This document shows positions 10,588 through 18,964 of a stretch of 64,000 nucleotides of DNA, in pieces. The notes under the pieces are model-generated. The model did no database searches, had not been told where the DNA came from, and saw only the letters and a list, made by a program, of their open reading frames with translations. The stretch is from Candidatus Heimdallarchaeota archaeon (GTDB lineage Archaea; Asgardarchaeota; Heimdallarchaeia; Heimdallarchaeales; Heimdallarchaeaceae). Numbering within the stretch: position 1 is the first letter of the stretch; every line of letters begins with the position of its first letter. The stretch spans positions 301,494-365,493 of the forward strand of contig JAUVXV010000003.1 of the NCBI GenBank assembly GCA_030603365.1, read 5' to 3'. Made by a program: the position numbers and the translations under genes.

Positions 10588-11796
10588 ATGTCCAATTTTG
10601 ATTATGTAGAAGATGCTATGTTCGGAAAATCAATATTTAAAAATGAATCAACTCTTTATCCTGAATATGTTCCACCCGATCTTCCTACAAGAGAAGAGGA
10701 TATCGCTAGATTGGCTAGAAACTTCAGATCTCTCTTAGGAAAAGAAGGCTCATTTTCAGTCAATGTAGCAATAGTCGGGCATGCAGGTATAGGCAAGACA
10801 AATTTATGCAAATATACAATGAAACGTTTTGAAGAAGCAGCCAATGCAAGACATATCAATGTGAAATTCCTTTATTACAACTGCCACTCTTTCAGAAGTA
10901 AAACAGCTGTTCTTAGAAATGTTCTATCAGAGCATTTTAGGATACAATCAAGAGGTTTTAGTGATGAAGAGATATTAGACATGCTAGTTAAAAGATTGAT
11001 AAAAGAAAATATTAGGTTAATAATTGCCCTAGATGAGGCTAACATGCTCAATTCCGAGGATATCTTGAGTATATTTCATGCAGGGGAGTATTTTGGGTCT
11101 GAACAAAGTATGATCTCTACAATCATCATTTCGAGACCGATAGAATGGCGATCGCTTCTGAATGTACCTCTTTCTGGGCATATTCATGACCAAATTGATC
11201 TTGAGGGATACAACAGAGACCAGTTGCTTCAGATACTCAAATATCGAGCAGAGAAAGCACTCTATCCAACAGCTTATTCTGATGAAACACTTGATTTAAT
11301 TGCCGATATATGTTCTGCATCAAGAAACGCTAGACATGGTTTAGAAATTCTATATCGATCTGGTAAACTTGTTGATCTGAAAAAAGAAAATTCTATTCTA
11401 CCAGATTATATTAGAGCAGCTAAGGCTGATGTTTATCCTGAATTAAGACGAGATGTTTTAGAAGAACTACGTAGTCATGAATTATTAGCCGCTTTAGGTG
11501 TAGCTAAAAAATTAGCCAAACAAGGTATCACATCAACTTCTGTGGATGAAGCTTATGATAACTATGTATTGGCATGTGAAGAGTATGGAGAAGAAGTGAG
11601 AGGAAAATCAACATTTAGATCTGCACTAGATACTTTACATAAGGTAGGAATCATTGGGAAAAGTGTTGGCCCAATTGAGGAAGGCAAAAGAGGTAGAAGA
11701 GCGAAAATTACAACCTTTGATATCCCTGCAACAGTGTTAGTTGAACGAATAGAGAATATTTTATCTAAACCAAGAAATATACATGGACATAACTAG
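10588..11796 (+). CDS. cdc6: Cdc6/Orc1 replication initiator
   Basis: SIFKNESTLYPEYVP..LP.RE N-terminus, Walker A GHAGIGKT, YYNC, Walker B IALDE, C-terminal winged helix. Confidence 0.95.
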   Translation: MSNFDYVEDAMFGKSIFKNESTLYPEYVPPDLPTREEDIARLARNFRSLLGKEGSFSVNVAIVGHAGIGKTNLCKYTMKRFEEAANARHINVKFLYYNCHSFRSKTAVLRNVLSEHFRIQSRGFSDEEILDMLVKRLIKENIRLIIALDEANMLNSEDILSIFHAGEYFGSEQSMISTIIISRPIEWRSLLNVPLSGHIHDQIDLEGYNRDQLLQILKYRAEKALYPTAYSDETLDLIADICSASRNARHGLEILYRSGKLVDLKKENSILPDYIRAAKADVYPELRRDVLEELRSHELLAALGVAKKLAKQGITSTSVDEAYDNYVLACEEYGEEVRGKSTFRSALDTLHKVGIIGKSVGPIEEGKRGRRAKITTFDIPATVLVERIENILSKPRNIHGHN

Positions 11797-12026
11797 TTGA
11801 CACAAATCATTGTCATGGAATTTTTTACTCCTTCAACTATGATATTATTATTTAGTACTTGATTCTTGAGTTCATCCATAGTTTCATATACAATTTTAAC
11901 TATAAGATCATAAATTCCATATACTGCATAAACTTCAGTAACTTCTTTGATTTGCTTTAAACCCTCTTGAACGGCTTCGAGCATTCCAGGTTGAACATTT
12001 AGAAGAATATAAGCTGCTTGTGTCAT
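11793..12026 (-). CDS. stand-alone Lrp/AsnC ligand-binding (RAM) domain protein
   Basis: AYILLNV...EVYAVYGIYDLIVKI pattern, 77 aa, no HTH. Confidence 0.9.
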   Translation of the reverse strand: MTQAAYILLNVQPGMLEAVQEGLKQIKEVTEVYAVYGIYDLIVKIVYETMDELKNQVLNNNIIVEGVKNSMTMICVN

Positions 12027-12153: not shown

Positions 12154-13473
12154 TTATTTTTGAGTTATTCGCAGTCTGGATTTACATGCGGGACAAGTCC
12201 CGTTTCCTACTATCCATTGGTAAAGATGATTTTTGTGGTATGCTATGTCACAAGAAGGACATCGAATTAGATTTTTATGATCGCCAATGATTTGCAAGCA
12301 AATCGAACATTTGACTTTACTTTTTTCTGAGGTTTTAAGGCTATAATCTTCTATTGCATCATTAAAATTAATTGCTACAGTTTCTTGAGGTTGATATGAA
12401 ACGGATTCATTTAAGTACTGAAATTTAGCAGAAGGTATATGTATCGAATCCATTACTGTTTTTTTTCTTCTCCTACGAACTACAACTCGGAAACAGATTG
12501 CTATAAAAGCGAATATAATCGCTCCATAGAGGAATAATCTAGCGAAATAAATAATAATGACCCAAAAGAAACTGGCATCTGAATTATAGTAATTATAGTA
12601 ATCAATATACCACATATAGTAGTAATCCGAATGAACCAAATCCAAAGGAATTTCCTCTAGATTATTATCTCCATAATTCAAAAATAATCTTGTAATATAG
12701 TTTTCTGCGATATGATCATAGTATAGTTTTGTAGAAATCCAACTAGTTGAGTTATAATCTTCAAATTTCAAACTTAAATTATACCACACATCAGGGACTA
12801 AGTAGTCATATGTCCATAGAGTGAAGCTTTTGTCTTCTTCATAATCTAAATTGCTATCCAAATGAGCCACAAAATCATCATTTTCATAATAGATTGTTAT
12901 AGAAAAATTATCACTATTAATGAAATTATCAACTATGCTAACTACCATTTTTTCAACTTCTTGATATTCAAATTCCGATCTTTCTATTCCAAAGTATACA
13001 TCCAAGTCAGGTTTAGTAATAAGTTCATAGGTCCAAAGTGTATAGTGGTTGTCAATACTTAGTGAATATCCTAATTCCTCAACATTTAGCGCAGTGAAGA
13101 CAATTTTTACAATCCCTGTTATTCGAGAATCAGTTATAAAATGATGATTTTCAACATCGCTAGAAGGTATAAGCCAACTCTTTATTTCAGTATCATTAAA
13201 ATCAAATACAAGACTTATTAATAATCCTTGATAAGGACCTTCAATATCTTCTCCCCAGTAGTTAACTATTGTCCTAAATTCCAAATATTCACTATCTAAC
13301 TGAACAAATAGTGTGGTTTCATTAAAAATCAAATTAGCATAGAAGTCATGACTTTGCACTGTGGAATTATAACTGAAATCAGCTTCAGTTTCCCCTATTG
13401 ATTGTATGTTACTCAACAATAATATTGCGAATAAAAGAAAAAAAATGAAAGGGAGGTTTTTAAATTTCTTCAC
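12154..13473 (-). CDS. single-pass membrane protein with C-terminal cytoplasmic RING-finger (putative E3 ligase)
   Basis: Signal peptide, ~270-aa acidic ectodomain, TM followed by RRRRKK, then CSIC-x12-CPSC-x4-HKNH-x3-W-x6-CPACK. Confidence 0.8.
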   Translation of the reverse strand: MKKFKNLPFIFFLLFAILLLSNIQSIGETEADFSYNSTVQSHDFYANLIFNETTLFVQLDSEYLEFRTIVNYWGEDIEGPYQGLLISLVFDFNDTEIKSWLIPSSDVENHHFITDSRITGIVKIVFTALNVEELGYSLSIDNHYTLWTYELITKPDLDVYFGIERSEFEYQEVEKMVVSIVDNFINSDNFSITIYYENDDFVAHLDSNLDYEEDKSFTLWTYDYLVPDVWYNLSLKFEDYNSTSWISTKLYYDHIAENYITRLFLNYGDNNLEEIPLDLVHSDYYYMWYIDYYNYYNSDASFFWVIIIYFARLFLYGAIIFAFIAICFRVVVRRRRKKTVMDSIHIPSAKFQYLNESVSYQPQETVAINFNDAIEDYSLKTSEKSKVKCSICLQIIGDHKNLIRCPSCDIAYHKNHLYQWIVGNGTCPACKSRLRITQK

Positions 13474-13478
13474 TTATT

Positions 13479-15587
13479 TCACCTTCTTTTTTTAATTATA
13501 ATTGCAATTACTGCTAGACACAATAATGGTAGGTAGATTGGCCAATAGTTTGTTGCCATTGGTTCTGTTGCTCCAGTCCAATAGTGACCATATGGTGTAT
13601 ACTGGTCTTCATAATCAAAGCTAATGAAAATCTCTCCAGTATGATATTCTGCATAAACAAGTATATACAAATCTTCTTCAGGTAAAATTACCTCTGAAGC
13701 CCCCTTACTAATAAATTCCCAATTACTTGCATTAAAAACTATAATACTTGTTTGAACTACTATAGAATCTGCAACTATGCTTCTATCATCTTCATCGCTA
13801 AACTTATTATCGATTCTAAAAAGCAGTGCATCTGTTTCGTCAATCTCTCTAGATATCTCTTGTTCAAAACTCAGGTTTTGAGGAATAACATTAGCTACTA
13901 TTACTCTTGCATTATTTTGTGATATTAAAGATACTTTGATTAAATGATCTTTCTCGACTACTACTGTTTGATAAGGTACATTTTTGTTATTTAGGATTAT
14001 TTCAGAATCATTTACATCAGCAGCAAGAACATCGAAATTATCAGAATATCTGGAAAATATTAAACCAAATGAATCAAAGTAGGCATGTCCTATAAGCTTG
14101 CATACAATAGCTTGATTTGGAAGTAAGATAAATTCTCTTCTCTTTCCAAGACTAACTAGTTGTTGGTTTTCTAGTTCTTCAAGATTAATTTCGAAAACTT
14201 CAGTCATAATTTCGTTTTCTAACCAATCTTCGGAATATACTTGATAGCGCAATATTTCAGATGTAAATACATAAGGTAGAGTTAGAACATATGAGTGGTT
14301 GAAAACTTGAGACGCGTTAGCAATTGTCCAAAATGGTATATCATCTATTTTGTAGTATATATCTACAAAAGCAGTTCCTGTGACATCTTTAACTTCACAC
14401 ATTACATTAATTAATTTCTCATCTGTGATGAAATCCTCGCTTATATAAACCCAGGAATCTATCTCTGGTGGTAGGTCATCTATAAGAATTACAAATGTTT
14501 TTTCCATAGATTTTCGAATATAGAATTCATTTAGGTGAGAAAGTGTTACTTTGATTTGAAAGTTTAATTCCACAGCATAATAAACTATTAGTTCTCCAAT
14601 AATTTCAGGGATATCACCAGTTTGAAGTTCTCCTTCTCCTAAGACTATGTAAGTACCTTCAGTATACTCAGCACCTGCTTCTAGTTGCACTTTTGTTAAA
14701 CTATCTGATCCACTAGCAGCTATAGAACACAAAACAAATCCTTCTTGAGCTAGGTTCTCAAACAAGTTATATAGTAATGGTCCATCATAATCTGAATCTG
14801 AACCACTACCAATTACAACACCACCATCACAAGGTTCGTCAGTAATCAGTATTATCAATTTAACAGTATCTTCTCTCCAATCTAAATTATTTTGTGCAAC
14901 CCAAAGCGCATCTCCCCAAGGTTCGTGACCTCCAGAAGCTGCAGTATTACCGAGAACAGTTACTATAGATTCTATATCATCAGTCAAAGGATAGACTAAA
15001 TTTGGATTAGTATAAGGATTTGAAGAAGTTCCTCCAAATAGAATTAAACTTAATCTAAAATCTGGTACTTCAGTACTTATTTCATCAATAACATCAATTA
15101 ACTCTGAAGTAAGTACTTGAATTTCATCATCCATCGATCCTGATTGATCTAATACAATTGCTAAATCAAGGGATTTTGATACACCTGTATTTAGCGTCCC
15201 AGTTTCAATAATATATTCCTGTGATATCCAAGATTCATTTAGATTCAAGTTATCTTTTGTTTCATTTAGTGGATTTAAAATGACACCATATTCATTAGTC
15301 TGAGAACTTAACTCTAACTGACTTACTTCCTCAGAGGAAAAGTTTGTAATATTGAATTGTACAGTAAATGTACTTTCAGGTAGAGTTGATGGAATCCCAT
15401 CAGTTCTGTGAGATGGTAGATTTGTTATCATTTCAATAGTTACATTTGACAGAGGACTCTCTACAGTAGAGAAATCTTTCTGTGGTTCTAAAATACGATC
15501 TTCTTGACCAAAAATGGTCAAAGAAGGAACTATTAAACTGCATATTAAAACTGCAGTAAATATCTTTTCTTTTCTATTCAATTTCAT
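13479..15587 (-). CDS. von Willebrand factor A domain cell-surface protein with C-terminal TM anchor
   Basis: Signal peptide, MIDAS DLAIVLDQSGSM, GGHEPWGDAL, LITDEP, beta-rich C-terminal domains, TM plus KKRR. Confidence 0.88.
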   Translation of the reverse strand: MKLNRKEKIFTAVLICSLIVPSLTIFGQEDRILEPQKDFSTVESPLSNVTIEMITNLPSHRTDGIPSTLPESTFTVQFNITNFSSEEVSQLELSSQTNEYGVILNPLNETKDNLNLNESWISQEYIIETGTLNTGVSKSLDLAIVLDQSGSMDDEIQVLTSELIDVIDEISTEVPDFRLSLILFGGTSSNPYTNPNLVYPLTDDIESIVTVLGNTAASGGHEPWGDALWVAQNNLDWREDTVKLIILITDEPCDGGVVIGSGSDSDYDGPLLYNLFENLAQEGFVLCSIAASGSDSLTKVQLEAGAEYTEGTYIVLGEGELQTGDIPEIIGELIVYYAVELNFQIKVTLSHLNEFYIRKSMEKTFVILIDDLPPEIDSWVYISEDFITDEKLINVMCEVKDVTGTAFVDIYYKIDDIPFWTIANASQVFNHSYVLTLPYVFTSEILRYQVYSEDWLENEIMTEVFEINLEELENQQLVSLGKRREFILLPNQAIVCKLIGHAYFDSFGLIFSRYSDNFDVLAADVNDSEIILNNKNVPYQTVVVEKDHLIKVSLISQNNARVIVANVIPQNLSFEQEISREIDETDALLFRIDNKFSDEDDRSIVADSIVVQTSIIVFNASNWEFISKGASEVILPEEDLYILVYAEYHTGEIFISFDYEDQYTPYGHYWTGATEPMATNYWPIYLPLLCLAVIAIIIKKRR

Positions 15588-15594
15588 ATTATCT

Positions 15595-15686
15595 CAATAT
15601 ATCGATATGTTGATTTCACTAATAAATATTGTGGATGGGGTAGATTTGGCCAACAATATCAATATTCCGATATATTTATATTGTGG
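15595..15686. promoter_or_regulatory. divergent promoter with two imperfect 18-bp palindromes and CAATAT repeats
   Basis: caatatatcgatatgttg (15595-15612) and caatattccgatatattt (15660-15677) are 14/18 identical. The second overlaps a TATA-like tatttata ~26 bp upstream of ATG 15706. Five exact CAATAT/ATATTG copies. Confidence 0.6.
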
Positions 15687-15705
15687 TTCTGTGTATGTTA
15701 TTTTA

Positions 15706-16065
15706 ATGACAGAGAAGTATTTCAAAAAAATGATTGCACTTCTAGAAGAGATGAATACGAGATTAAAAAATATAGAACAGTCTCTTGGATCAGAGATCTC
15801 TCCAATTTCATCTTTGGATTTACTAACGAAAATTCCTAAATCGCATTTAGAAACCTATTTTACGGTACAAAGGCTAGATGAAGCAACATGTAAAGAAGTT
15901 GCAGATGAAACAGGTAGGGCATTCAATTTAGAATCAAGGTACCTTGTCAGATTGAATGAATTAGGCTTTTTGGATAGAAAAAGAGTACCAATTTCCAAAC
16001 CTACTAAAGACAATCCCAATACAAGAGGCACAGAAGTTAAATACTTCTTGAAGGAGAGTAATTAA
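15706..16065 (+). CDS. winged helix-turn-helix DNA-binding protein
   Basis: N-terminal coiled coil, then ATCKEVADETGRAFNLESRYLVRLNELGFLDRKR...KYF. ATG 15706 chosen because 15514 overlaps the divergent vWA gene. Confidence 0.8.
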   Translation: MTEKYFKKMIALLEEMNTRLKNIEQSLGSEISPISSLDLLTKIPKSHLETYFTVQRLDEATCKEVADETGRAFNLESRYLVRLNELGFLDRKRVPISKPTKDNPNTRGTEVKYFLKESN

Positions 16066-16066
16066 G

Positions 16067-16831
16067 ATGAAGACAATTAGCGTTCATAGTTACAAAGGAG
16101 GAACTGGAAAGACTACTTTTCTGTTAAATCTTGCTGGTCTCTTAGCACAAGAAGGTAAGAAAGTATTAGCAATGGATTATGATTTAAGAGCTCCTTCTTT
16201 TCAATCATATTTCAGCACAAATAATCTTGTTTCTTTATCTAATTATCTTCTAGAGGATACACCAATATCAAAAATAATATTTCCATGTCAAGTTAATGAT
16301 GAAATTCATCTTGATATTGTGTTTTCATCCATGGAATTTTTACAGCAGCATTCCAAGCAAAGAGATAAATTGTCAAGAGATGATTCCAAATATCTGTCAA
16401 AACTTTTTAATCTCCAGAAGTTAATATCAAAAACTTATGATTATTTGTTGATTGATACAATTCCTGGATTCTTCTATAGATCAATTGATGCATTGATGGT
16501 TTCGAATATAATTCTTGTAGTCGCTAATCCTAGTATATCTAATATTCTTGGACTTGAAGAGTTGAGTGGTAATATCTACTCTATGCTGAGTAAAGAAACA
16601 AAGATGGTTTTATTGATAAACAAAATCGAAGAAGAAGGAATTCAAGCTGATAAAACTATCTTTGAGGAAAATCTTTCAAAACTTAAGAAAATTGGGGACC
16701 AAATGTTTACTCATACTTTGGAGGTTCCTTTCTTCAATATGCTTAGTGAGAGAATCTACGCATTTGAAAAGGATACAAATAAGGAATTTTTAGATGTAAT
16801 AACAAAGTTATCTAAAATAATTAGAGAATGA
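16067..16831 (+). CDS. MinD/ParA family ATPase
   Basis: Deviant Walker A KGGTGKTT, DYDLRAPS, YDYLLIDT.PG, LLINK. Confidence 0.92.
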   Translation: MKTISVHSYKGGTGKTTFLLNLAGLLAQEGKKVLAMDYDLRAPSFQSYFSTNNLVSLSNYLLEDTPISKIIFPCQVNDEIHLDIVFSSMEFLQQHSKQRDKLSRDDSKYLSKLFNLQKLISKTYDYLLIDTIPGFFYRSIDALMVSNIILVVANPSISNILGLEELSGNIYSMLSKETKMVLLINKIEEEGIQADKTIFEENLSKLKKIGDQMFTHTLEVPFFNMLSERIYAFEKDTNKEFLDVITKLSKIIRE

Positions 16832-18267
16832 GAAAAATGGATAGTAAAGAGAAAGTACAAAATGAAGATTTGCAAAAAATTAAGAACTATCTTCAAAATT
16901 CAAAGAAGAATATTGAAAGAATGAAAATAGGCAAAAAACCACGCCGAAAGTTCAAATTCATAATTAAAGAAAACAAATTTCTCTTTACTCTTGTTCTAAT
17001 TATCATCGTAACCACACCTTTACTCACAATTATTTTAAACAGAAATCCTCTCGCAACTAGTCCTTACAAAGATGCTATAACAAATACAATGGAAACTTTT
17101 GAATCAAACTTCACTGCAGTTAGTGGACTTCCAGTACATGAAGTAATTTCAGAAAACACTAGTTCAGAACTAATTATTTTGTCAACCTTAGCAAACTCAA
17201 TACTTATTGAAAGTGGGCTTTTCTCCAAAAAAGACAATTTAATGAAGCGAATTTCTTTTATTTTTGAAATTATTGTTGATGATTCTTTCAGAGATTACAA
17301 TAATAAAACACAGAAATTACCTGTTTTCAACCAATTTCTTGGGATCTATGCACTCTATCAAGCATTTTATGTATTAGAAGATACTGCATTTGCATTTAGT
17401 TTTACTAATATTAGCCGAATCGTTAATACTATGATTACTGACTTTTTGTACTACTCTACATGGCCTAATCTCTTTGCTGTTTCTGAAGATACTAGTACTT
17501 CATATTTAGTTGACCAAGCTCTTGCACTATCTGTTCTTACTACTCATATGTTCTTGACTGGAGAGCAGAAGGTTTTTGGTTGGGATCTCAAAGAAATAAC
17601 AGGAGGTATGTTAAGTCGCATTGAAAATCGTTTCTATATCTCTGCATCTCAATCCTTCTTTCATAAATATGATACAGTAACTCATGTAAGTTCAGGAATA
17701 TCGACTTCAGCTGATTTAATGTTTACTTCATTAGGATTATCAAGAACAGAGAAATTTTCTTCAGGTTACGCTTTTCCCCTAAGTAGCTATAATTTACATC
17801 AAAAAGTAATCAATGAATTAATAGATTCAAATTGGTTAGTTCATGAAGTTGATAAAATTGATGATTCTATTCAAATTAAGGATCAAGCATTTTTTACAAT
17901 GGTTTCTTATCTTTTGAACTTACAAAATGTCGGATTAGAGATTGAAAATTCAACATCTACTTTTCTGTATTCAGAAGATGGCTTTGTTAATAGCTTACAA
18001 AACCCGATTGTAACGGCAGAATCGTGTATGTATGGTTTAATTACTATGTCTTCGAAGAACTGGGCAAAAATTCAAAATGAAAGAGAATATGCACCTGAAC
18101 CCAGACCAACTCCTACAGGAACAGGAACAGAAACAGAATCCCCAGTACCTTCAGCAAGTTTTAGTTTTGTTGGAGTAATCTCTGCAATTGTTGTGATTGT
18201 AGCTCTTTCAAGGATGTCTATGAAATATAAGACGAGAAAGAAATTTGGTGACCAGGCCGAGATTTGA
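16828..18267 (+). CDS. membrane protein with N- and C-terminal TM helices and an extracellular helical (alpha/alpha-toroid-like) domain
   Basis: Basic N-tail plus TM, repeated Y/I-x-x-DQA helix starts, PT-rich linker, C-terminal TM plus basic tail. ATGA overlap with the ATPase gene. Confidence 0.7.
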   Translation: MRKMDSKEKVQNEDLQKIKNYLQNSKKNIERMKIGKKPRRKFKFIIKENKFLFTLVLIIIVTTPLLTIILNRNPLATSPYKDAITNTMETFESNFTAVSGLPVHEVISENTSSELIILSTLANSILIESGLFSKKDNLMKRISFIFEIIVDDSFRDYNNKTQKLPVFNQFLGIYALYQAFYVLEDTAFAFSFTNISRIVNTMITDFLYYSTWPNLFAVSEDTSTSYLVDQALALSVLTTHMFLTGEQKVFGWDLKEITGGMLSRIENRFYISASQSFFHKYDTVTHVSSGISTSADLMFTSLGLSRTEKFSSGYAFPLSSYNLHQKVINELIDSNWLVHEVDKIDDSIQIKDQAFFTMVSYLLNLQNVGLEIENSTSTFLYSEDGFVNSLQNPIVTAESCMYGLITMSSKNWAKIQNEREYAPEPRPTPTGTGTETESPVPSASFSFVGVISAIVVIVALSRMSMKYKTRKKFGDQAEI

Positions 18268-18436: not shown

Positions 18437-18964
18437 TTATTGATTCATTAAGATTAATTCAGCAACCTGTTTCAGTAATTCTAAATGTTCTTCTGTCCAT
18501 TTTTTTTCCTTTTTTACAGTTTCAAATCCAATGAACCCAATAGGATTATCTTCTCTAGATATTGGTATTGCTAAGATGCTTTTTACACCTTGAAATTCCA
18601 TTAATTCTTTCATTGGTTTAGCTTCATCTGTAAGCTCATTTATGCTATTTATACAAGCTACCTCAAGCTTATCATAAACTACATTTTTATAGAAAGGGAA
18701 AAGATCTATGGGGATGTTTTGTTGATCCTGCTTAACAGAATGAATACCCTTTTTGCAAAATTCATGAGTATTGTTGGTAATAATAAAACCATTTTTATCT
18801 TTTGAGAAAAAATAGACATAACCCCTATCTGAATTAGAATATTTGCCTATAATTTCTATCCATTTGATTATTTTCTTATCAAGATCAATCTCTTCTAAAT
18901 AGATATCTTTTAAGCTGTTGACTACCTTTACCAACTTCTTGTTTTTCAAAGTTTCAGAAGACAT
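18437..18964 (-). CDS. stand-alone GAF domain protein
   Basis: SDRGYVYFF, NTHEFC, GVKSILAIPI, IGFIGFE, WTEEHLELLKQVAE. Confidence 0.88.
   Translation of the reverse strand: MSSETLKNKKLVKVVNSLKDIYLEEIDLDKKIIKWIEIIGKYSNSDRGYVYFFSKDKNGFIITNNTHEFCKKGIHSVKQDQQNIPIDLFPFYKNVVYDKLEVACINSINELTDEAKPMKELMEFQGVKSILAIPISREDNPIGFIGFETVKKEKKWTEEHLELLKQVAELILMNQ

Follow-up and report, generated by a model that had tools for sequence, protein, structure and literature searches.

A candidate regulon for cell-surface proteins of Heimdallarchaeia with winged-helix, MinD-type ATPase, vWA and membrane RING genes

Five genes of a divergent locus

A locus of five genes was studied in a 64,000-nucleotide stretch of contig JAUVXV010000003.1 from a Candidatus Heimdallarchaeota archaeon, the whole of which is termed the window below. 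Two operons point away from each other at this locus, and operator-like sites shared between them suggest a conserved, apparently undescribed regulon for surface proteins of Heimdallarchaeia. Re-reading of the open reading frames confirmed the layout given in a preliminary description of this DNA, namely a left arm in which a vWA gene is followed after 5 bp by a gene for a transmembrane (TM) RING protein, a right arm encoding a winged helix-turn-helix (wHTH) protein, a MinD/ParA ATPase and a membrane protein, joined by a 1-bp gap and an ATGA overlap, and a 118-bp spacer between the arms. The features, with product lengths in amino acids (aa), are as follows.

12154–13473, minus strand: type-I membrane RING protein (439 aa), with a signal segment, two GOLD/PPC-like jelly-roll ectodomains (residues 39–266), a TM segment at about 305–335 and a cytoplasmic RING
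13479–15587, minus strand: surface vWA protein (702 aa), with a signal segment, Ig-like strands, a vWA domain of integrin-beta-I type, further beta domains, a C-terminal TM segment and a short basic tail
15588–15705: divergent spacer between the arms (118 bp)
15706–16065, plus strand: coiled-coil and winged-helix protein (119 aa), TrmB-like, with a LESRYL recognition helix; candidate regulator
16067–16831, plus strand: MinD/ParA-family ATPase (254 aa), with a deviant Walker A motif, signature Lys10, D37/D39, D130 and N185, an isoelectric point (pI) of 5.9 and no C-terminal extension
16828–18267, plus strand: doubly anchored membrane protein (479 aa), with a conserved basic cytoplasmic helix (residues 6–33), a TM segment, an extracellular (alpha/alpha)6 toroid of GH76/AGE/YyaL type, a Pro/Thr linker and a second TM segment

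Hydrophobic segments were located at residues 9–27 and 314–332 of the RING protein, 9–27 and 680–698 of the vWA protein, and about 50–70 and 442–460 of the membrane protein. The Pfam domains identified in the five proteins were zf-RING_2 (E 4.5e-6), vWA (E 4e-7) and AAA_31 (E 5e-24). Related loci were gathered by whole-genome searches, a locus search with the membrane protein having returned nothing, and were sorted into families, of which f1 is Heimdallarchaeaceae and f5 is Hodarchaeales, both read from the named relatives of the proteins, while f7 is a third family of the class.

The RING protein carries its zinc ligands in the order C4H2C2 (C389, C392, C405, C408, H413, H416, C427 and C430), and all eight, together with W420 of the central helix, were invariant among 22 orthologues. 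The best matches of the RING profile in the PDB were RING-H2 E3 ligases such as Arkadia, RNF38 and ZNRF3, with E values down to 2e-9. The source genome contains two ubiquitin matches and four UQ_con (E2) matches over cut-off and encodes at least seven proteins with a RING pattern; the RING assignment made earlier is thus supported both by the invariant ligands and by the presence of ubiquitin and E2. Archaeal E1/E2/RING cascades function in vitro, as described for the archaeal srfp E3 (PMC5654768). In the ectodomain model (pLDDT 77.5), two beta-sandwich domains matched GOLD, PPC and collagen-binding domains with Z scores of 9–10. The order of signal peptide, ectodomain, single TM segment and cytoplasmic RING is that of RNF43/ZNRF3 and the RMR-type E3 ligases, but the ectodomain is GOLD/PPC-like rather than PA, and the ligand order is C4H2C2 rather than C3H2C3. 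At two loci (L039:5340-6650 and L052:12773-14048) the RING gene is split into two frames, by a frameshift or an assembly error.

In the vWA protein, the metal-site residues D147, S149, S151, E155, E222, D250 and E251 were invariant across 39 homologues, and the motifs DxSxSMxxE and E-x3-D, aligned to integrin beta-6, are those of a beta-I-type metal-ion-dependent adhesion site (MIDAS) and its adjacent site (ADMIDAS). The best PDB matches of the profile were integrins beta-6, beta-3 and beta-1 (best E 5e-4), with the strand preceding the vWA domain included, and Pfam Integrin_beta was matched weakly by 21 of the 39 members, in every case below the family cut-off. The domain is flanked by beta-strand segments, with CARDB matches in 3 of the 39, and a profile of the joined flanks, built to look for an insertion of the vWA domain into an Ig domain, found no contiguous homologue. 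The metal motifs are shared with integrin beta; in contrast to integrin beta, no PSI or I-EGF domains were detected by Pfam, the tail has about four basic residues and is not a signalling tail, and the partner in the window is a jelly-roll protein without a beta-propeller. Similar vWA domains are common in prokaryotes. The family also appears distinct from the integrin-beta-4-like family that adjoins tubulin/FtsZ (PMC9258230). No homology was detectable between the RING ectodomains and the distal domains of the vWA protein. On these features, the vWA protein would be a metal-dependent adhesin, and the RING protein would be a membrane ligase that ubiquitylates membrane clients.

The wHTH protein of the window had no Pfam match by itself, while TrmB was matched weakly by 30 of 40 family members; it contains neither an AAA+ domain nor a ligand-binding domain. 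The ATPase has the residues expected of the MinD/ParA (SIMIBI) group (K10, G14-K15-T16, D37, D39, D130 and N185) and matched Pfam AAA_31 over cut-off. It fell under the cut-off of every NCBIfam model, the best match being a KGGVGR-variant ATPase and the match to TIGR03371 (BcsQ-like) also lying below cut-off. Membership of the cell-division MinD group (MinCDE) was rejected, the scores for TIGR01968 (49.7, cut-off 212.9) and TIGR01969 (54.5, cut-off 201.75) being far too low, the sequence stopping at the last core helix and no MinC or MinE gene being adjacent. The ATPases are net acidic (pI 4.9–7.0 in 31 of 32), and those encoded together with a wHTH and a membrane protein, here called trio MinDs, formed a single clade in a quick tree (SH-aLRT 98). 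Pairs of a wHTH and a MinD gene were also seen in family f6, in further Asgard classes and, within Hodarchaeales, in a second paralogue; in a third paralogue a MinD-like domain and a member of this wHTH family form one polypeptide (weak profile matches, E 1e-5 to 7e-8).

Several further loci contain members of this wHTH family. At L228:5870-9724, and likewise at L230, L236, L239 and L240 (all Hodarchaeales), two Roadblock-like genes, a wHTH gene and a small GTPase gene stand together with a 567-aa fusion of a degenerate MinD-like domain to a C-terminal wHTH. In another Asgard class (L223:3463-5762, L224, L231 and L232) a zinc-finger-like wHTH accompanies MinD, and some of these loci encode a 320-aa protein that has a C-terminal wHTH of the same family and no Pfam match.

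The model of the membrane protein (pLDDT 84) predicts an (alpha/alpha)6 toroid of the GH76/GH105/AGE six-hairpin type, with Foldseek E values of 4e-8 to 1e-5, a TM-score by target of up to 0.71 and Atlas TM-scores of 0.62/0.71; a first Atlas search had given only scores below 0.9. Its best-conserved part is the cytoplasmic helix, in which Y21 and G35 are invariant despite an identity of only 13–18% between the membrane proteins of the two families. No acidic residue (Asp or Glu) of the toroid is shared by all members of the two families; D229 is kept in Heimdallarchaeaceae but in only 7 of 11 Hodarchaeales proteins. These features bear on the proposal that the wHTH alone senses a small ligand and that MinD and the toroid are no more than targets of regulation, such as an accessory ATPase and an enzyme that modifies envelope glycans. 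The fold resembles GH76, GH105 and epimerases, and BcsQ-like MinDs serve polysaccharide systems, to which the sub-threshold TIGR03371 match would correspond; but the toroid lacks an invariant acidic residue, the 119-aa wHTH lacks a domain for a ligand, and coupling of wHTH to MinD recurs, up to fusion. A one-component arrangement of this kind is judged quite unlikely.

A complex of the MinD dimer, ATP/Mg and residues 3–50 of the membrane protein was predicted, a pairing of ATPase and N-terminal tail that the preliminary description had put forward. The score was 0.37 against 0.17 for the best control, the runs agreed in at least 81% of contacts and the pLDDT of the partner was at least 54. In calibration, 58 of 80 solved complexes and 2 of 110 mismatched pairs passed the acceptance mark; of these, just 7 of the solved complexes but both mismatches did so with scores of 0.60 or less, so that the proposed contact rises above its controls while the support it gains is weak.

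Operator sites at the promoters

Two related palindromes, one at each promoter, had been described in the spacer. Two sites were indeed found, and each is better described as a 24-bp element made of three tandem 8-bp pseudo-palindromic units.

15592–15615, no strand: operator site 1, three 8-bp units between the vWA start codon and the TATA-like box, over the likely transcription start
15619–15626, minus strand: TATA-like box of the left arm, assigned from position and conservation
15657–15680, no strand: operator site 2, ending in a TTTATA box (15675–15680) 25 nt before the wHTH ATG and overlapping the BRE (transcription factor B recognition element)/TATA region of the right arm

Identity to 16 non-close relatives was 0.78 in the site columns and 0.43 in the remaining spacer. 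A matrix trained without the source genome and its three closest relatives ranked the two spacer sites first and second genome-wide, at 27.9 and 24.3 bits, the best scores of 30 column-shuffled matrices being 16.9–25.4. The sites are kept at promoter positions in 21 other Heimdallarchaeaceae genomes. Where an insertion of about 5 kb (L042) or of a sirtuin gene (L052) splits the arms, each arm retains one site, at 22–25 bits; at L051, where 258 bp lie between the MinD and membrane genes, the membrane gene has its own site of 23.1 bits. A sigma-70 scan remained at chance level and is irrelevant to archaeal promoters.

The Hodarchaeales operator differs (core CAACGTTGCGCAA), and so does the start of the wHTH recognition helix. 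It was found at 11 trio promoters, at five promoters of unlinked vWA genes and at one unlinked three-gene surface operon, which in four other genomes is the divergent neighbour of the trio. With a strict 15-mer, 5 genomes yielded 9 matches, every one of them at a trio promoter or an unlinked vWA promoter, with 0 in the control; the 5 genomes (completeness 70–94%) in which no trio was found yielded 0. A looser pattern, run over 22 genomes, matched trio promoters 21 times, promoters of unlinked vWA genes 5 times, the unlinked surface-protein operon once and other positions 12 times, against 7 control matches. Of the 333 other upstream regions taken from these loci, just two exceeded 3 bits, and both share the site of a vWA gene. 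In a midpoint-rooted vWA tree the operator-bearing members fall into two separate Hodarchaeales clades, one of which branches first, a distribution that fits an old link later lost in one clade. Five Loki-type vWA loci gave no operator match and no neighbour with a RING match. Because the genomes compared are kin, the counts cannot be treated as independent; what carries the argument is how specific the matches are, and that the same pairing is seen with two different motifs.

The operator-bearing surface operon (L207:5937-12001 and L058:8816-14866, Hodarchaeales) encodes an anchored protein of about 300 aa, an anchored protein of about 580 aa that by eye looks like another toroid, and a zinc-ribbon protein of about 1150 aa with about 30 TM segments; the zinc ribbon is the only Pfam match in the operon. 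Further operator-like sites were seen elsewhere. A third, tentative candidate in the source genome (G000:C15:283550; 23.2 bits, a score reached by 3 of 30 shuffled matrices) lies just 5' of genes for membrane-anchored beta-helix (NosD-like) surface proteins, as does a site at L218:1327; the source genome has about 64 beta-helix paralogues and such a site at only one of them. In two Heimdallarchaeaceae genomes (L247:1501 and L248:1501) a site stands directly 5' of homologous genes of about 470 aa, by eye B12-binding radical SAM proteins, and it may belong to the wHTH of this locus or to another regulator. A site at C15:296851 had been considered to precede a tubulin-like gene, but the gene in question encodes a multi-TM protein.

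Distribution of the two modules

The five-gene cassette was found in 22 of 30 other Heimdallarchaeaceae genomes, contiguous in 17, broken by contig ends in 3 and carrying spacer insertions in 2. The flanking genes, including cdc6 and an AsnC-like gene, are equally syntenic, so co-location alone is weak evidence, and synteny within the family was rejected as an argument for a functional unit. The boundaries of the cassette are marked by two deletions, in both of which the flanks are retained: a 3' fragment of the membrane gene is all that is left of the block in G009, and in G007, a genome in a single contig, only fragments of the outer gene on each side persist.

The presence of a wHTH and a ParA-type ATPase with palindromes upstream recalls aspA and segAB, and in AspA-ParB-ParA and SegAB a site-specific DNA binder (a wHTH in AspA) works with a ParA-like ATPase and palindromes upstream of overlapping genes (PMC5120986). 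By analogy, the locus could serve DNA partition or chromosome tethering, with the wHTH as centromere binder, MinD as the ParA motor and the membrane protein as the tether; in Heimdallarchaeaceae the RING gene and cdc6 are about 360 bp apart. However, no ParB adaptor and no segB gene, downstream or elsewhere in the loci, was found; the third gene encodes a membrane toroid protein in all loci, and the DNA-binding role would fall to a TrmB-like wHTH encoded 5' of the ATPase. Unlike those of archaeal partition systems, the sites overlap and track surface-protein promoters and follow the genes when these are moved away. In addition, cdc6 is not adjacent in Hodarchaeales, the ATPase is net acidic, and the cassette has been cleanly lost from G007 and G009. 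A partition function is accordingly considered very unlikely.

Outside Heimdallarchaeaceae the two arms mostly come apart, and the expectation of a conserved neighbourhood across Asgard genomes was borne out only within that family. The trio occurs in 13 of 22 Hodarchaeales, with a divergent vWA gene adjoining in only one (L125). In three families a vWA gene is accompanied by one for a protein that crosses the membrane once and has a RING or RING-like finger on the cytoplasmic side, with no detectable homology among the partner ectodomains: two jelly-rolls in f1; WD40 and Asp-rich repeats, followed by a TM segment and a zinc finger, in f5 (10 of 15 loci, 4 tandem and 6 convergent); and FG-GAP/Ig-like features in the partner of about 1005 aa in f7, followed by a TM segment and a zinc ribbon-RING (tandem at 9 loci). 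In f7, the genomes searched yielded no match to the wHTH or to the membrane protein. The five-gene layout is one family's arrangement of two older modules, wHTH-MinD-toroid and vWA with membrane RING, and a shared operator appears to tie the two together.

The f7 operon (L128:2529-7680, also L117, L118, L124, L126, L127, L129, L213 and L222) places a beta-I-type vWA gene before that of its partner, which also has helical repeats; the FG-GAP/Ig-like call rests on an Atlas score of 0.88 and is a lead only. The pair looks like an integrin beta/alpha pair tied to ubiquitin. In Hodarchaeales (L115:7985-10321, L116, L119, L130, L131 and L133) the protein beside the vWA has an extracellular WD40 propeller, Asp-rich repeats of calcium type, a TM segment and a RING-like finger.

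A role of the ATPase in placing adhesin or receptor proteins at the cell surface had been proposed. In such a scheme the wHTH would regulate, while MinD would separately bind the tail of the membrane protein and position surface proteins, including vWA and RING, at a site or in a pattern. In its favour, cargo positioning is a common role of ParA/MinD ATPases, and the conserved basic helix might serve to stimulate the ATPase; the weak complex score would agree with this scheme just as well, and the operator evidence is compatible. The distribution of the genes argues against it: MinD stays with the wHTH where the membrane protein was not found (f6, other classes and the paralogue), one paralogue combining both in a single protein, and the f7 vWA-RING pair exists where neither wHTH nor membrane protein was detected. 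Moreover, the ATPase is acidic and has no membrane-targeting extension, which leaves no obvious matrix, and the vWA tail offers only its few basic residues. The positioning claim was not upheld, and the scheme is regarded as unlikely.

The proposed relay, related systems and neighbouring genes

The reading favoured here, with somewhat better than even confidence, is a transcriptional regulon for cell-surface proteins with a relay from membrane to DNA. The wHTH very probably binds the tandem-octamer sites and would control, most likely repress, both its own operon and the vWA-RING operon. Co-regulation of the arms, as first suggested in the preliminary description, is supported by the shared sites, one of which each arm keeps when split, and the regulator is very probably the wHTH as judged from sequence. 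The repeated pairing in f6, in further Asgard classes and in a Hodarchaeales paralogue, together with the fused paralogue, suggests that MinD acts at the wHTH; it is probably a co-regulator whose ATP-dependent dimerisation would switch the wHTH, in the manner of FleN/FlhG on FleQ/FlrA or of a split Type Ia ParA. Strong conservation of the cytoplasmic helix, above all other parts of the membrane protein, is the reason for setting that protein upstream of MinD. Tentatively, the toroid protein might be the input, its outer domain binding a glycan or surface ligand and its helix binding or stimulating MinD. The outputs would be surface proteins, chiefly the metal-dependent vWA adhesin and the co-expressed membrane RING ligase, with activities predicted from their domains.

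The closest working model is FleN/FlhG with FleQ/FlrA of Pseudomonas, Shewanella and Vibrio. There, a MinD-type ATPase binds and modulates a transcription regulator of surface structures, whose targets include operons for adhesins and exopolysaccharides that have two or more binding boxes (PMC10723142, PMC12826062). Here, in contrast, the regulator is a 119-aa coiled-coil wHTH rather than an AAA+ sigma54 activator, FlhF is absent, a dedicated membrane toroid protein is co-encoded and the promoters are of the archaeal TATA type. In Type Ia ParA proteins (P1 ParA, F SopA), the deviant-Walker-A ATPase has an HTH region at its N-terminus that represses the operon encoding it (PMC9178275). The wHTH and ATPase studied here are the products of abutting genes, and in one paralogue the two are fused; they differ in being separate polypeptides, in the C-terminal position of the wHTH in the fused paralogue, in the absence of ParB/parS and in a regulon that reaches other operons.

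Several observations weigh against this regulon and its relay. The signature Lys is replaced by Arg, as in BcsQ, in the Hodarchaeales trio MinDs and in one Heimdallarchaeaceae member (L050:9696). One wHTH orthologue (L148) stands without MinD or a membrane protein, and f6 has wHTH-MinD without the membrane protein, so that the relay would not be obligatory. Two trio promoters (L057 and L149) have only a weak or variant site, and 8 Hodarchaeales vWA genes with an intact 5' end have no operator, 4 of them in trio-bearing genomes. Finally, another transcription factor could bind the sites instead of the wHTH.

The claim that no system with this gene combination had been described agrees with a literature search, most subscription papers lying outside it, in which none was found; nor did this mostly open literature yield a published account of an Asgard integrin/vWA/FG-GAP, MinD/wHTH or TM-RING module that matches this one. 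The locus supplies a concrete candidate regulator, an operator sequence and a target list for surface genes in the Asgard class closest to eukaryotes. It also offers putative membrane-bound E3 ligases that could act in the Asgard ubiquitin-ESCRT pathway, the description of which (PMC9192718) has no text match for RING outside its references. If the relay is true, it would represent a new type of archaeal trans-membrane signalling with a MinD ATPase in place of a kinase. The recurring pairing of vWA and membrane RING, with propeller ectodomains in two families, bears on the origins of integrin-like adhesion and receptor ubiquitylation. A more speculative and rather doubtful extension is that an as yet undescribed three-component transmembrane signalling system (surface toroid sensor, MinD switch and wHTH) predates the split of Heimdallarchaeaceae and Hodarchaeales and controls an integrin-beta-like adhesin and a single-pass RING ligase, the f7 partner with its FG-GAP propeller and Ig features then making an integrin alpha/beta-like heterodimer wired to ubiquitin.

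The cassette is bordered in the window by three further genes. The Cdc6/Orc1 gene lies at 10588–11796 on the plus strand. A gene for a small Lrp/AsnC ligand-binding domain (77 aa, E 2e-12) occupies 11793–12026 on the minus strand, downstream of the RING gene and convergent with cdc6, and is kept where the cassette has been deleted. On the other side, a stand-alone GAF-domain protein is encoded at 18437–18964 on the minus strand, convergent with the membrane gene; it is present in about 9 Heimdallarchaeaceae loci and was kept in the cassette-less G009.

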